Source of the DNA: Thermodesulfobacteriota bacterium | GTDB lineage: Bacteria; Desulfobacterota; Binatia; Bin18 | DNA length: 64,000 nt | Assembly (NCBI GenBank): GCA_964291405.2 | Contig: OZ219926.1 | Coordinates: 2,464,001-2,528,000, forward strand | Direction of reading: 5' to 3' | In this document: one piece after another, positions 29,786 through 35,509 of the stretch | Numbering within the stretch: position 1 is the stretch's first letter | Layout: each line of letters opens with the position of its first letter | Position numbers and translations under genes: made by a program | Notes under the pieces: model-generated | What the model saw: only the letters and a program-made list of their open reading frames with translations | The model's database searches: none | Told to the model about the DNA's origin: nothing

Positions 29786-31471
29786 TTATCCATATGTTCT
29801 CGTATACCAGTGCTGCTGGGCGACACTCAGGACATTATTGATAAGCCAGTACAGCACCAGTCCGGCTGGAAAATTAATGAACATCACCGTAAAGATGACC
29901 GGCATGAGGAGCATCATCTTCTGCTGGATCGGATCTCCGGTGGTTGGCATCATCATCTGCTGGATGATCATCGACCCCCCCATAAGTAAGGTCAGCACCG
30001 GGATACCTGGAGGATCAACGAAAGGAATGGCAAGCGCGCCCAAGCGGTCTGGCTGAGACAGGTCTTCAATCCAGCCGAAAAATGGAGCTTGTCTCAATTC
30101 AATGGCGTACAAAAGCCCCTGATACAGGCCGATGAACACCGGGAGCTGTACAATCATGGGGAGACACCCACCGAGCGGATTCACTTCGTACCGCTTATAC
30201 AGTTCCATCATTTCCTGGTTCAGCTTTTGTCGGTCCTCCTTATATTGCTCACGGAGTCTTTCTATCTGCGGCTGGAGTTTCTTCATCGCTGACATGGACT
30301 TGAAGCTCTTATTACTGAGCGGGAAGAATACCAGTTTAACCAGGACAGTGAGTAAGATAATAGCAATGCCGTAGTTCCCGGTCACCCCATACAGGAGTCT
30401 CAGAAGAGAGACTAACGGCCGGGCAATAAAGTGGGACCAGCCAAAATCGATGGCCCGGTCAAAGGCCGGGTCAACCGCATTCAGGGCATCCGTATCCTTC
30501 GGACCAACATACAGGGTGTAGGAGACCGCCTCCCCGCTCCAGGGAGTCGAGAGGCGTGTTTCTAGGGTCTTGTCTTCATCACGAAAGAAGAGCTGGGCCG
30601 TTTCAATATCTCGAGGCATTATGCCGGCCAAGAAATAACTGTTTGTGAATCCTGCCCAACGAACATCCCCCGGCCCGTATGAGTCTCCGGCTTCCCAATC
30701 CCAGGCGTTTTCATATTCAAAGGTCCGGCCCATCAGCGCAACCGGCCCGTAGACGTCATAATAGGTAGATTTCCCTTCTGAACGTGAGCCTTCGAGCCAG
30801 GATATAGAGAGGGTCGAAGCCTGAAAAGGAACCTGCGTGACATCGACGCTGAGACCTATGCCATACCCTTCGCCGGAAAAAGTAAAGGTTTTGGTAAAAG
30901 TTGCCCCATTCGCCAGCGACCCTCTAAACACGAGATCCTTATCAGATCCCGCCGGCACAAAGAGCCGTTCTCCTGCGGGGACCCCCTTCACGGTATACGG
31001 CAGTGTATCATCACTGAGAGTGATATCTTTGCCGCTCAGGCTCAGGACGAAGGGCAGCTCTCCATAGGTCCCGGCGATGACCATTTCCAATAGCGGACTG
31101 TCTGGACTAAGCGTCACCGGATACTGTTTGAGGCGGAAGCTTTTGATACGTCCGCCCACGGAAGTAAAAACAGCAATATACGTGTCTGTTTCAACTGTTA
31201 TGTCCTGTTCCACGGGAGCGGGGGAAACTCTTGAGGTGGGCTGGGGCATACCGGAAGTCTGTTCTTCTTGTTGTTCAACATCGGTCCGGCGGCGCTCCGA
31301 AAGGAGTTGGGGCTGTTGATCTGAAGGAGTGGCTGATTCCGAGTCGACCAATGGCTGTTGAGTCTGGGGCTGGAGAGGGTCAGGCGGTGGGTAAAGATAG
31401 GAGATCAGTGACTGATACCCGATAAGAATGAGGATACAGAGGACAATAGCGAGGAGACTCTTGTTATCCAT
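29786..31471 (-). CDS. yidC: Membrane protein insertase YidC
   Basis: IDFGW, NYGIAIILLT, NPLGGCLP, PAGLVLYW. Confidence 0.97.
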   Translation of the reverse strand: MDNKSLLAIVLCILILIGYQSLISYLYPPPDPLQPQTQQPLVDSESATPSDQQPQLLSERRRTDVEQQEEQTSGMPQPTSRVSPAPVEQDITVETDTYIAVFTSVGGRIKSFRLKQYPVTLSPDSPLLEMVIAGTYGELPFVLSLSGKDITLSDDTLPYTVKGVPAGERLFVPAGSDKDLVFRGSLANGATFTKTFTFSGEGYGIGLSVDVTQVPFQASTLSISWLEGSRSEGKSTYYDVYGPVALMGRTFEYENAWDWEAGDSYGPGDVRWAGFTNSYFLAGIMPRDIETAQLFFRDEDKTLETRLSTPWSGEAVSYTLYVGPKDTDALNAVDPAFDRAIDFGWSHFIARPLVSLLRLLYGVTGNYGIAIILLTVLVKLVFFPLSNKSFKSMSAMKKLQPQIERLREQYKEDRQKLNQEMMELYKRYEVNPLGGCLPMIVQLPVFIGLYQGLLYAIELRQAPFFGWIEDLSQPDRLGALAIPFVDPPGIPVLTLLMGGSMIIQQMMMPTTGDPIQQKMMLLMPVIFTVMFINFPAGLVLYWLINNVLSVAQQHWYTRTYG

Positions 31472-31498
31472 AGAAACTTCAAATGCCCGCAAAATGAG

Positions 31499-31777
31499 TT
31501 AGGGGACGAGATCGACTCCGCCCGGATGCCATGGGTGGCATTTGGCGAGACGTCGAATCGTGAGAATCAGCCCCCTAAGCGTCCCATGCTTGCGTACGGC
31601 GTGCAGAGCGTACTGAGAGCAGCTGGGATAGAAGCGACAGGCCGGACCGATCAGCGGAGAGATGAAGAGGCGATAGCCCTTGAGTCCGCCCACAACTAAC
31701 AACTGGCCTAGACGAGAGACTGCTGTGACGCATGACGGGCCGGAAAAGTGAGAGATTTCACTGCGTGCGTTGAGCAA
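31499..31777 (-). CDS. yidD: Membrane protein insertion efficiency factor (start uncertain)
   Basis: YRLFISP..CRFYPSCSQYA..KCHPWHPGGVD. Confidence 0.92.
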   Translation of the reverse strand: MLNARSEISHFSGPSCVTAVSRLGQLLVVGGLKGYRLFISPLIGPACRFYPSCSQYALHAVRKHGTLRGLILTIRRLAKCHPWHPGGVDLVP

Positions 31778-32288
31778 TGGGAAGCACCCTCTCTAGTTCG
31801 GTAACGATCTGGGCAAAAGTTAACTCCTGCGCGCGTGATTTGGGAATAATAAGAATATCTCGTGTCGGGGATATACGCGCCTGCCGGACTCGAAAAAACT
31901 CGCGCAACCTTCTCTTCATTTGATTCCGCATGACCGCCTTGCCATAGCGCCGTGAGGCTGTCACCCCAAGGCGCGGACGGGCGGTACGGGCGGGCGAGGT
32001 AATAACAATAAAATTGCGACTATACCGGCGTTCTCCTCGTCTTTGGAGGGCGAGAAATTCTCGGCGAACACGCAGACGTGCTGCTTTGGGAAATGTGTAT
32101 CGGACCGTGCGAGTAGCTAGCGGCGCGCCGGCTTGAGCGGTGTCCGTACACTGAGGAGTTTGCGCCCTTTCGTGCGCCGCCTCTTGATAACCGCACGACC
32201 CCCAGCTGTCCTCATCCGAACGAGAAACCCGTGCGTACGCTTTCGACTGGTATTGCTTGGTTGATAGGTCCTTTTCATCGATATTCAT
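31758..32288 (-). CDS. rnpA: Ribonuclease P protein; only canonical start lies upstream of rpmH, giving an N-terminal extension of about 60 aa
   Basis: [32 protein letters not shown] (RNR-like motif). Confidence 0.9.
32117..32278 (-). CDS. rpmH: 50S ribosomal protein L34 (53 aa, absent from ORF track)
   Basis: [44 protein letters not shown]. Confidence 0.97.
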
Positions 32289-32347
32289 CCGTTCCTAGTG
32301 TGCTGTGCTCAGTTAGCCATCCATATCACCATACCGCTCCCAAGATG

Positions 32348-33373
32348 TCAATTTTCTCCTGGTGGAAACTCGGCTTTGATCTGACGTGCCAACAGGTCTG
32401 TGACCACCTGCATCGGCGGTTTACCAGAATAGACAAGCTCATACATCTGCTCCACAATAGGCATATCAACTCCCAGACGCTGGGCTAAATCCAGAATCGA
32501 GCGGCAGTTCCGGATGCCCTCGGCAATCGTTGTCATGGTCCGCTGAATGGCCTCCAAGGACTCTCCTCTTCCGAGCCGAATACCGACAGTGCGGTTGCGG
32601 CTGAGGTCACTCGTGCATGTAAGAATAAGGTCACCCATGCCAGAGAGGCCTGATAACGTTTGGGGATTTGCTCCCATCCGGGTTGCCAAACGGACAACTT
32701 CAGCCATGCCACGCGTGATTAAGGCCGCCCGCGCGTTATAGCCATAGCCTAAGCCGTCACTCACTCCGACGGCCAAGGCAATCACATTCTTGACTGCACC
32801 GCCAATCTCGGCCCCAATCATGTCCGTCGTTGTGTAGACGCGAAATGTCGGAGCCGCAAACAGTGTCTGGACTCTCTGGGCGATGGCGTGATCTTTCGCT
32901 GCGACCGTTACTGCGGTTGGGAGTCCGCGTACGACTTCCGCGGCAAAGCTGGGACCTGAGAGCACGGCGATCTCGTGGGCGAACCGTGGGGGGAGGGCCT
33001 CGGTGAGCACCCCACTCATCGTTTGGAGAGAATCCTGCTCAATACCTTTACTTGTGCTCACTAGCAGCGGTGTTGTCGTCAACAAAGATCCTAGCGTTGA
33101 GGCAATGGAGCGGACGGCATGGGATGGAACGGCGATAACAAGGACCTCAGCGCCGATGACTGCTGCAGACAGCTCTGGGGTAAAGCAGAGCGTCTCCGGA
33201 AGCCGCACCCCAGGCAAATAGTCCGCATTCTCTCGTGTTCTTTCAATTTTTTGGGCTAAGACCTCACGCCTGACCCACACCTGAGCCTCATGTCCGACCG
33301 AGTCTAAGAGACACGCCAGGGCGGTTCCCCACCCGCCTCCGCCAATAACAGCAACACGCATATTACTAATCAC
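32348..33373 (-). CDS. gpsA: NAD(P)H-dependent glycerol-3-phosphate dehydrogenase
   Basis: GGGGWGTALA, SKGIE, SGPSFA, GGAVKNVIA, GDLILTC..SRNR. Confidence 0.96.
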   Translation of the reverse strand: MISNMRVAVIGGGGWGTALACLLDSVGHEAQVWVRREVLAQKIERTRENADYLPGVRLPETLCFTPELSAAVIGAEVLVIAVPSHAVRSIASTLGSLLTTTPLLVSTSKGIEQDSLQTMSGVLTEALPPRFAHEIAVLSGPSFAAEVVRGLPTAVTVAAKDHAIAQRVQTLFAAPTFRVYTTTDMIGAEIGGAVKNVIALAVGVSDGLGYGYNARAALITRGMAEVVRLATRMGANPQTLSGLSGMGDLILTCTSDLSRNRTVGIRLGRGESLEAIQRTMTTIAEGIRNCRSILDLAQRLGVDMPIVEQMYELVYSGKPPMQVVTDLLARQIKAEFPPGEN

Positions 33374-33390: not shown

Positions 33391-34209
33391 TTAATGTGGA
33401 CGCCAGCCGATGACGCTGAGCTGGCGACCGGCTTGCGCTCCTTCTCTTCGGTACGAGGTAAACTCATCTGGATGGCAGAATGTACAGGGTCCAACGCTGT
33501 GAATCTGCGTCTGCGGGACGCCAGCCTGAATCAACTGCATGCGGTTTAGCGCCCGCAGGTCGAGATAGCCCTTGTCTCCCTGCCGATTCCAGGTCGTAGG
33601 CCGTCCATCTCCCCAGCGTTCAAAGAGTGGCTCTCCTACCTCAGAGCCGACTTGATAACAGCATCCCCCAATTGACGGACCCAAGGCGACCCAGAGCTGG
33701 GTGGGGGAAACGTCCCATTGTTCGGCGCATATTTCGACTGCTCGGAGGGCGATTGCCTTCTGCGTACCTCTCCATCCAGCGTGAAGAGCGCCAAGAAGAG
33801 GAAGCGTGTCCAGCTTTTTGTATCTGTTGGAGGACACGTTTCCTCTTTCGCCCCTTTTGTGTGGGGCAACAAGGAGAAGCGGTACGCAATCCGCAGTCTT
33901 GATGCCAAGCAGCACGTTTTGCTCCGTTGTGAGCATCCCGTCTGCTTCTAACCCCGGTTTTGTTTCCCCTCCTTCAATATGCACGATGGTATTCCCATGA
34001 ACCTGTGTGAGGGTATGGAGTGGACAGTCCGGGGCGCCCAAAGAAGCGTCTAATGAAGCTGCTGTGAAGGATTTTGGTAAGCGGCGGGAAAAACCATGGA
34101 TCAGACCAGGAAACGCGCTCCACGCCTCGGCTCGAATCCAGAGCTCCCGCCTGGACGGTTCTTTTGGGTTTGGAGCCGATTTAGGCAGAACTCTTCCCTC
34201 CCTTCTCAA
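33391..34209 (-). CDS. pgeF: PgeF/YfiH family peptidoglycan editing factor with 18-aa repeat-derived insertion (start uncertain)
   Basis: QVHG, TADCVP, HAGWRG, GPSIGGCCY, SYRR. Confidence 0.9.
   Translation of the reverse strand: MRREGRVLPKSAPNPKEPSRRELWIRAEAWSAFPGLIHGFSRRLPKSFTAASLDASLGAPDCPLHTLTQVHGNTIVHIEGGETKPGLEADGMLTTEQNVLLGIKTADCVPLLLVAPHKRGERGNVSSNRYKKLDTLPLLGALHAGWRGTQKAIALRAVEICAEQWDVSPTQLWVALGPSIGGCCYQVGSEVGEPLFERWGDGRPTTWNRQGDKGYLDLRALNRMQLIQAGVPQTQIHSVGPCTFCHPDEFTSYRREGAQAGRQLSVIGWRPH
33795..33848 (-). repeat. Palindromic element copy 7 (54 bp), in-frame inside pgeF
   Basis: AAAGAGGAAACGTGTCC-TCCAACAGATACAAAAAGCT-GGACACGCTTCCTCTTC encodes (E)[17 protein letters not shown]. Confidence 0.92.
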
Positions 34210-35509
34210 TAAGGGCGAGCGTTTCAATCTGGTCTGTTTGCGGAAACATATCGAATGGCTGGACCCGTCCGACGGCATAGCCAGCGTCGGTAAAACGATC
34301 AAGGTCTCGGGCGAGCGTCCGGGGCGAACAGGAGATATAGAGCAGTTTGGGCGCGTTCACTCCTATGACCGAGGAAAACGCCTCGGGGCTCAGTCCTGTC
34401 CGAGGCGGGTTGAGCACAATCCTGTCGATGGATGGGAGGGTGATAGCGATCTCTTCTATCTTCTGCGCTGCATCACCATGAAAGAAACGGGTGTTGTGGT
34501 ATCCGTTACGCCGGGCATTTTCTTTTGCAACATTCACGGCCCGTTCATTTTCCTCAATCCCGACCACAAACTTGGTCTGCGAGGCACAATACAGGGCGAT
34601 AGGACCGATTCCGCAGTACACGTCAAGAACGATTTCTTGTCCGGTCATATTGCTCCACCGGACAGCGGTTTCGTAAATGCGCTTCGCCATAGGTGGATTG
34701 ACCTGAGAAAAAGTATCCACCGGGATACTGAGGCGGACATGCCCTATTTGTTCGAGTAAAGAGTCCCGACCCCGCAAGGGGCGGAAGCGTTTCCCCCAGA
34801 TCACATTGCCCGGCTGGTCGTTGATATTATGGACAATGCCACTCAAAAAGGGAAACCGTCGTTCAAGCTGACGGGTCAAGTCGTGCACCTGGGGGAAGTG
34901 CATATGCCGGGTGACCAGCAGCAGGAGCGCTTTCCGCTGCCAAAAACTATAGCGCAGGTCGATATAGCGGAGTTGGCCGGTATCGCGCGCTTCGTCATAG
35001 GGAATAATATGCAGCCGTTCTATCGCCTGTTTGAGAAAGGCGACGATGCGGTTGACTTCTTTGGGGTGGACGGGACAAGCCGAGATGTCAAAAACCTGAT
35101 GTGTTTCAGGGACATACAGACCGATCAGGGTTTGTCCCTTGGCGCTCTGCACGGCCAGCTTAACGCGGGAGCGGTAGCCAAACTTTTTGGGCGAAGCAAC
35201 AGGCAGGGGAATATTGATCGCCCTGAGCGACGGAAATACGGCAAACGCCTCCCGCACTATGGTTTGTTTTCTTTCAAGCTGTTGATCATAGGGAACGGAG
35301 ACGAAGGGGCAGCCGTAACAGTGGGGCGCATGCGGACAGGGCGGCTTCCAGTCAGGCTTGTCGCCTGAATGGCTGTTTGGGCGCGACAACCCTGAGTTCG
35401 CCTTCTTTTTTCTGTACTGATTGTCCGGCTTTGGGACTTGGCGGGGACGCTGAGAGCCGGCGTGTCTTTTTCGAGATGTGGACGGCCGCGAGGGTTTATG
35501 TTCGGACAC
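34181..35509 (-). CDS. rlmD: 23S rRNA m5U methyltransferase RlmD-like (no obvious TRAM domain)
   Basis: CPHAPHCYGC, FSQVN, DVYCGIG, NPPRTG, YISCS, DMFPQT. Confidence 0.88.
   Translation of the reverse strand: MSEHKPSRPSTSRKRHAGSQRPRQVPKPDNQYRKKKANSGLSRPNSHSGDKPDWKPPCPHAPHCYGCPFVSVPYDQQLERKQTIVREAFAVFPSLRAINIPLPVASPKKFGYRSRVKLAVQSAKGQTLIGLYVPETHQVFDISACPVHPKEVNRIVAFLKQAIERLHIIPYDEARDTGQLRYIDLRYSFWQRKALLLLVTRHMHFPQVHDLTRQLERRFPFLSGIVHNINDQPGNVIWGKRFRPLRGRDSLLEQIGHVRLSIPVDTFSQVNPPMAKRIYETAVRWSNMTGQEIVLDVYCGIGPIALYCASQTKFVVGIEENERAVNVAKENARRNGYHNTRFFHGDAAQKIEEIAITLPSIDRIVLNPPRTGLSPEAFSSVIGVNAPKLLYISCSPRTLARDLDRFTDAGYAVGRVQPFDMFPQTDQIETLALIEKGGKSSA

Follow-up and report, generated by a model that had tools for sequence, protein, structure and literature searches.

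How is the protein component of ribonuclease P translated in a genome in which no start codon lies where the conserved RnpA domain begins? The question is raised by the rpmH-rnpA locus of a Thermodesulfobacteriota bacterium belonging to the Binatia, located in the window analysed here, a stretch of 64,000 nucleotides from contig OZ219926.1 (assembly GCA_964291405.2) whose numbering is used throughout. A preliminary description of this DNA had proposed that rpmH, which encodes ribosomal protein L34, is nested completely inside an extended rnpA frame, as in Thermus. The comparisons presented here indicate that rnpA is very probably translated from ATG 32288 through rpmH and a linker into the RNase P domain, giving a 176-aa RnpA.

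Organization of the rpmH-rnpA Locus

Both genes are located on the minus strand, where the long form of rnpA was called as an ORF at 31758..32288 (176 codons followed by the stop TGA, 31760-31758; PF00825) and rpmH occupies 32117..32278 (53 codons followed by TAG, 32119-32117; PF00468). Thus placed, rpmH is wholly contained in the rnpA ORF and shares its strand but not its frame, the frame of rnpA being -1 relative to rpmH. The rnpA start ATG (32286..32288) stands 10 nt 5' of the rpmH ATG, and the start region of the two genes reads CACTAGGAACGGATGAATATCGATGAAAAGG on the minus strand. Downstream of the rpmH stop, a linker of 23 nt (32094..32116, minus strand; rnpA codons 58-65) leads to the first conserved RnpA codon, F66, from which the core domain recognized by Pfam (aa 66-169) extends over 31782..32093, minus strand. 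The neighbours identified with Pfam are gpsA on the 5' side and yidD and yidC on the 3' side.

The L34 ORF matched Ribosomal_L34 (PF00468) over aa 1-44 with an E value of 6.8e-23 (80.8 bits, profile positions 1-44 of 44), and the RnpA ORF matched Ribonuclease_P (PF00825) over aa 66-169 with an E value of 4.7e-26 (profile positions 1-105 of 109; 91.4 bits, the curated cut-off being 22.3). Homologues of 176 aa have already been called in public collections under the name 'ribonuclease P protein component'. The 53-aa L34 continues past the 44-position Pfam model with a tail of about nine residues (...RTPLKPARR) that lengthens the overlap; of the 38 Binatia loci placed, 37 keep an L34 of 52-53 aa, and that of L026 has 49 aa.

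An in-frame TAG (32295..32297, minus strand) closes the rnpA frame three codons 5' of ATG 32288, so no rnpA start is possible further 5'. Upstream of the RnpA domain, ATG 32288 is the sole ATG, GTG or TTG in the rnpA frame, and the in-frame near-cognate codons before or around F66 are limited to ATC 32282, ACG 32147, ACG 32108 and CTG 32075. Within rpmH, a canonical start in the rnpA frame is impossible without a Cys or Trp in L34, because NTG requires TGx as the next codon; L34 of the window contains neither residue, and in L063, the one relative with a GTG of this kind, L34 has a Cys at that position. The N-terminal extension of RnpA would exist because the sole usable start codon lies 5' of rpmH. 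The layout agrees with the preliminary description, which had given the first ATG (32288) and the same rpmH coordinates (32278-32117), had reported the sequence AGGAACGG-ATG-AATATCG-ATG, and had pointed out that ATG, GTG and TTG are absent in frame between codon 1 and F66 (FPKAARL).

Chance Level of an Open Frame in One Genome

We simulated rpmH 20,000 times with the L34 protein fixed and with the codon usage of the genome, taken from its 2143 long ORFs. The rnpA frame was stop-free across rpmH in 19% of these simulations, and in 7.6% when the synonymous codons of rpmH itself were shuffled. An open rnpA frame in one genome is hardly beyond chance, and its significance comes from the relatives.

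This chance level would fit an alternative in which rnpA starts at a non-canonical codon 3' of rpmH (ACG 32108, CTG 32075, or, in relatives, a CTG that overlaps a TGA stop) and the long frame is there by accident, rpmH being rich in Arg and Lys codons and the genome rich in GC. ACG 32108 and CTG 32075 are indeed in frame, and CTGA occurs at the end of rpmH in 7 of 46 loci of the family described below. Likewise, among five outgroup loci with an ordinary start and with the core in an rnpA-type frame, that frame contains stops in three and is open in two.

Conservation of the Nested Arrangement in the Family

By tblastn, rpmH and the RnpA core were located, locus by locus, in 41 relatives and then in 55 genomes of the family, 52 of which gave a match; the three without a match are 74, 84 and 91% complete. 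We excluded L025, a locus of the genus that runs into a contig end, two genomes of the genus with an insertion (G018 and G043), and three loci of genus g21 with a replacement start. The remaining 46 layout loci represent 8 genera and 43 distinct rpmH nucleotide sequences; the pooled counts include kin, so the loci are not independent.

The two features singled out by the preliminary description, an upstream ATG and a stop-free alternate frame over rpmH, recur in every one of the 46 layout loci. The ATG is found at -10 in 45 of them and at -13 in one (L075), and a stop between it and the RnpA core occurs in 0/46. Variable in sequence and stop-free, the linker measures 17, 23 or 29 nt across the layout loci, always 2 mod 3, and it is 23 nt long in all 25 layout loci of the genus. 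In the stretch that takes in the last 60 nt of rpmH and runs up to the core, 45 of the 46 loci have no canonical start; the exception, L063, has a GTG at +125. The RnpA cores are 43-96% identical across the family, and the codons of the F-P-K motif vary synonymously in relatives (TTT/TTC, CCC/CCA/CCG, AAA/AAG), which indicates that translation covers F66 and begins upstream of it.

The non-canonical candidates fare differently in the same loci. The ACG that the preliminary description had named, near 32105, as a competing start is not conserved: within the genus, ACT, CCA and other codons stand in place of ACG 32108. At 32075, a position inside the conserved FPKxxRL motif, relatives have CTA, CTT, CTC, ATC or TTG. 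In 14 of the 46 loci the linker contains none of CTG, ATT, ATC, ATA and ACG, and the commonest near-cognate position is shared by at most 10 of the 46. An NTG start overlapping an rpmH TGA stop, as in CTGA or GTGA coupling, was not found in the window, where the TAG stop of rpmH gives CTA, which is no start; with stops of TAG in 28 layout loci, TAA in 11 and TGA in 7, CTGA is impossible in 39 of the 46.

Avoidance of Stop Codons in the Second Frame

Wherever T is the last base of an rpmH codon and the following codon starts with AA, AG or GA, the rnpA frame acquires a stop. We therefore compared T at the third position between such risk sites and all others, counting only codons at which a T there is synonymous. 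In the 46 layout loci, T was found at 0 of 402 risk sites and at 378 of 1481 sites elsewhere (26%). The three loci of g21 have T at 7/25 risk sites and 24/103 others, and ten outgroup loci with a normal start have it at 8/83 and 66/322, respectively. The same contrast can be followed at single positions, since some rpmH codons are at risk in certain loci and not in others: codon 10 ends in T in 0 of the 25 loci in which it is at risk versus 14 of the 21 in which it is not, and codon 11 in 0 of 5 versus 30 of 41.

Parsimony on the gene tree gave 17 third-position changes at the four sites that are always at risk, a count that is weak alone. Owing to kinship, and with only 17 inferred changes, the risk-site counts overstate the number of events; the argument for stop avoidance is carried by the contrast between risk and non-risk sites together with genus g21. 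On that comparison, the relatives show selection keeping the rnpA frame open and in register.

Loci with a Replacement Start

Genus g21 constitutes a natural control. In all three of its loci rpmH ends in CGG-TGA, so a GTG start overlaps the stop, and the old rnpA frame carries two or three stops, at codons 8, 31, 36 and 39; rpmH codon 8 is AGC in all 46 layout loci. A quick ML tree from L34 and the RnpA core (156 columns) grouped g21 with g24 and g26 (SH-aLRT 94) inside the family (97), and with this position in the tree its ordinary start looks secondary. The preliminary description had set one finding against its own proposal, namely relatives that combine stops in the frame with a normal start downstream; in the family these were encountered only in g21 (3/3 loci), inside the family tree.

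A second control is provided by G018 and G043, in which an insertion of 53 nt in the linker breaks the register and brings AAGAGGAAGC-GTG, a Shine-Dalgarno (SD) motif together with a GTG in frame with the core. The inserted sequence is a dispersed palindromic repeat with arms AAAGAGGAAACGTGTCC and GGACACGTTTCCTCTTT and a variable loop of about 20 nt. Searching for its pattern gave 9-31 hits per genome in five genomes of the genus, and the reversed control gave 0; the copies located in the rnpA linker are those of L021 and L084, in G018 and G043. From their sequences, these two genomes apparently do without the RnpA extension. Together with g21, they indicate that the frame decays once another start exists and that the extension of about 60 residues is dispensable.

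An accidental long frame with a non-canonical start 3' of rpmH leaves unexplained the 0/402 stop-making codons, the linkers of 2 mod 3, and the appearance of stops only alongside a GTGA start. We regard this alternative as improbable, and translation of rnpA from the upstream ATG is the reading followed below.

Nested rnpA Frames Elsewhere in Binatia

Eleven other Binatia families were examined through 13 genomes; in 10 of these genomes an ordinary start (ATG, GTG or TTG) is found at the rpmH stop or close to it. L026, from the sole sampled genome of the window's order outside the family, combines an ordinary start with a stop in the frame. The downstream start is absent in G030, G032 and G036.

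G032 belongs to a large family, f9, comprising 41 genomes of 30 genera, 40 of them with a match. We analysed 29 loci from 29 genera (L092-L121, e.g., L100 at G032:C15; L113, of the unpublished genome G087, was left out). The rnpA frame is open in 29/29 of these loci, and their linkers of 14, 17, 20, 23, 26, 29, 32 or 38 nt are all 2 mod 3. T was found at 0 of 196 risk sites versus 144 of 992 sites elsewhere. A start near the rpmH stop is missing in 23 of the 29 loci, and the other six have a canonical start there. Most loci carry a TTG at -13 within the motif TTGGCC, and this TTG is likely the rnpA start of f9. Nesting is thus widespread among the Binatia, where the rnpA start has two or more designs, and it may have arisen once or twice.

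The results from f9 also bear on a second alternative, in which the ribosome shifts by -1 near the end of rpmH, giving an L34-RnpA fusion, or, once past the rpmH stop, reinitiates with no start codon. The rnpA frame is in fact -1 versus that of rpmH, and a linker of 2 mod 3 would equally be required by a frameshift. A shift close to the 3' end, however, needs no stop-free rpmH, yet the frame is open in 46/46 and 29/29 loci of the two families; nor would it need an upstream ATG or TTG. In addition, no slippery heptamer was seen by eye in the last rpmH codons, and a fusion would tie the amount of RnpA to that of L34. We consider shifting or start-less reinitiation very improbable beside initiation at the upstream codon.

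In two further Binatia families, one locus each, L030 (G030) and L032 (G036), also lacks a canonical start after rpmH, and ATGs are found there 40-49 nt upstream of rpmH. In L033, from G028 of the same family as G036, the core is in another frame, with a TTG at +124. Across the sequences sampled, Binatia differ greatly in how the start of rnpA is laid out.

Translation Initiation Region

The rnpA ATG is part of a conserved element, ACGGATGA (32285..32292, minus strand), in which it sits inside an SD-like GGAUGA located 6 nt 5' of the rpmH ATG. The element is identical in 34 of the 46 layout loci, and GGATG is present in 43; in L068 and L070 the rnpA ATG is kept although the preceding GG has been lost.

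To evaluate SD pairing, we located the 16S tail CACCUCCUUU in the genome. Upstream of the rnpA ATG, the mean pairing energy across the family was -1.9 kcal/mol versus -1.7 kcal/mol for shuffled sequences, and upstream of the rpmH ATG it was -4.35 kcal/mol, due to the GGAUGA or GGAUGG that contains the rnpA ATG. In the window, an SD-like AGGA (32293..32296, minus strand) lies 4 nt 5' of the rnpA ATG. This tetramer is confined to the window's subclade; it is absent in L015-L024 and in the other genera, and in its place other members have TAGAAACGG, TATAAACGG, GCATACGG or AAATTGG. The preliminary description had suggested one ribosome-binding region, acting through AGGAACGG, for both genes: the motif is real in the window, but the AGGA belongs to the subclade only and pairing across the family equals the shuffled baseline. 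A single SD serving both start codons was not found, the SD-like GGAUGA of rpmH itself containing the rnpA ATG. Predicted accessibility was 0.46 at the rnpA ATG versus 0.70 at the rpmH ATG, a small and model-dependent difference. With a conserved SD absent and lower predicted accessibility, initiation at the rnpA ATG would be weak.

The ATG triplet at -10 probably serves both as the rnpA start and as part of the rpmH SD, a dual role suggested by g21, which keeps GGATGG with a dead frame. Its conservation could partly reflect the role in the rpmH SD. The three g21 loci (L073, L078, L081) have retained GGATGG at -10 after gaining the GTGA start, and their -10 ATG opens a frame of 10 to 33 codons that overlaps the rpmH start and ends at a TAA at +23 (L073, L078) or +92 (L081). 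This frame may be a relic, or else a short overlapping ORF with a regulatory role.

As we picture it, ribosomes starting at ATG 32288 would read all of rpmH in the -1 frame, then the 23-nt linker, then the RnpA core, and L34 would be made from ATG 32278 on the same mRNA. A 30S subunit paired at GGAUGA would bring the AUG of rpmH into the P site, masking that of rnpA. The ribosome would use a single one of the two starts, with a strong preference for rpmH, and the rnpA AUG would be used rarely, without SD help. Rare initiation of this kind would suit a low RnpA:L34 ratio of roughly one hundredth; for E. coli, the relevant part of PMC9945441 places RnpA about 130-fold below L34.

The RnpA Product and RNase P

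A third alternative holds that the -10 ATG is only a part of the rpmH ribosome-binding site, or the start of a regulatory overlapping uORF, and that rnpA is not expressed as a functional protein. The pairing of GGAUGA with the anti-SD would fit this account, as would the ATG kept in g21 with a closed frame. On the other hand, the ATG survives the loss of the GG in L068 and L070, the RnpA core is conserved and confidently folded in the model described below, and RNase P RNA is present in the genome, where a full-length type-A molecule was found (290.6 bits). The search for rnpA gave one match in this genome, so a second copy was not found. Of the explanations weighed here, a silent rnpA seems to us the least credible, its chances being very slight.

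The product of translation from ATG 32288 would consist of an N-terminal passenger of about 60 residues, probably disordered, and a normal RnpA core. AlphaFold2 (29-row alignment) gave a pLDDT below 50 for residues 1-60 and of about 90 for residues 66-173, which adopt an alpha-beta fold. In this model the extension resembles a disordered passenger whose sequence is set by the L34 codons, and it is probably not needed for RNase P function. A role as an acidic autoinhibitory tail was considered for the extension and dropped, as its net charge is not conserved and ranges from -2 to +8 among relatives.

Comparison with Thermus and with the Ordinary Arrangement

The nesting of rpmH in rnpA was reported in Thermus by Feltens, Gossringer, Willkomm, Urlaub, and Hartmann (2003), as described in passages of PMC9841429 and bioRxiv 10.1101/520783. 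According to the former, the sequence AUGGAUG places the rnpA start 4 nt 5' of the rpmH start. The relevant passages of these two sources (PMC9841429, from 2022, and bioRxiv 10.1101/520783, from 2019) present the Thermus pair as the sole described case of this nesting. The pair is counted in bioRxiv 10.1101/520783 as one of two known bacterial out-of-frame internal initiations, and in the passages of both sources it is one of only two or three bacterial cases known of starts that are nested out of frame or ambiguous. Our literature search returned no description of rpmH-in-rnpA nesting outside Thermus, and likewise nothing for Binatia combined with RNase P.

As far as the Thermus locus is portrayed there, the two arrangements share a complete inclusion of rpmH in rnpA, on the same strand and out of frame, with an N-terminally extended RnpA. 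In both, the rnpA start lies just 5' of the rpmH start on one mRNA. The offsets of 10 and 4 nt are both 1 mod 3, so the frame relation proposed in the preliminary description stands. Conservation among relatives is found here in 46/46 layout loci of 8 genera, the exceptions having a replacement start. The two differ in phylum (Binatia versus Deinococcota) and in the distance between the starts. In Thermus, the same sources describe a single GGAGG SD for both AUGs and an experimental demonstration of both proteins, whereas the Binatia rnpA AUG lies inside the GGAUGA of rpmH without a conserved SD of its own, and the Binatia case is known from sequence comparison. An origin independent of Thermus, also suggested in the preliminary description, is borne out by the ordinary start at or near the rpmH stop in 10 of the 13 genomes from other Binatia families. 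As its sequence presents it, the Binatia locus is a real, independent, Thermus-like nested gene and not a new kind of system.

The ordinary form, in which rnpA is coupled to rpmH by an ATGA or GTGA start-stop overlap, shares the operon rpmH-rnpA-yidD-yidC and the need for RnpA at a level far below L34. It is present in g21 and in outgroup loci such as L026, L029 and L035. Unlike this form, the window has a TAG stop with no start codon at or after it, so termination-reinitiation coupling is unavailable there.

Binatia would be the second lineage with the nesting, independent and family-wide, and supplied with natural controls in one reverted genus and two repeat-rescued genomes. The set offers a comparative system for how two essential genes share one initiation region, and it shows that such overlaps are kept by selection, not chance. 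It also carries a warning for annotation, as overlap rules can drop rpmH or the true rnpA start in these genomes. A broader proposal, which we put forward tentatively and rate somewhat below an even chance, is that nesting is an old, selectable and recurrent solution and not a Thermus oddity, found in two or more large families of Binatia, of which about 37 genera were sampled. In this proposal, an rnpA start within the SD-like element of rpmH would make initiation mutually exclusive and yield a very low RnpA:L34 ratio without an rnpA SD. The arrangement would be reversible by a point change to GTGA or by a palindromic insertion carrying SD and GTG, after which the second frame would fill with stops.

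Transcripts and Neighbouring Features

A consensus scan of the minus strand returned no promoter or terminator. By eye, a TTGACA that overlaps the gpsA stop (32346..32351, minus strand) is a possible -35 element of an rpmH-rnpA promoter. Two contigs from RNA libraries cover the locus: one of 257 nt, 100% identical, spans 32078-32326 with both ATGs and the rpmH-rnpA junction, and one of 1489 nt, from a relative about 91% identical, spans 31400-32427. Such contigs show neither ends, strand nor translation, DNA carry-over is possible, and the shares are small (0.07-0.14). The end of the first contig at 32326 is a weak hint to the position of the rpmH-rnpA promoter.

At the other end of rnpA, the longest yidD ORF (from TTG 31777, minus strand) overlaps the last 20 nt of rnpA (31758-31777). 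The Pfam match to YidD begins at residue 28, and an in-frame TTG and GTG, seen by eye near codons 25 and 28, are alternative candidates for the yidD start that would remove the overlap.

The palindromic repeat that interrupts the rnpA linker of G018 and G043 has a copy in the window itself, at 33797-33851 (minus strand), inside an ORF of the Cu-oxidase_4 family (pgeF/yfiH-like, 33391-34302). The copy falls between the two halves of the Pfam match and appears to be carried in frame within this coding gene. An in-frame palindromic repeat of this sort is reminiscent of the Rickettsia palindromic elements.
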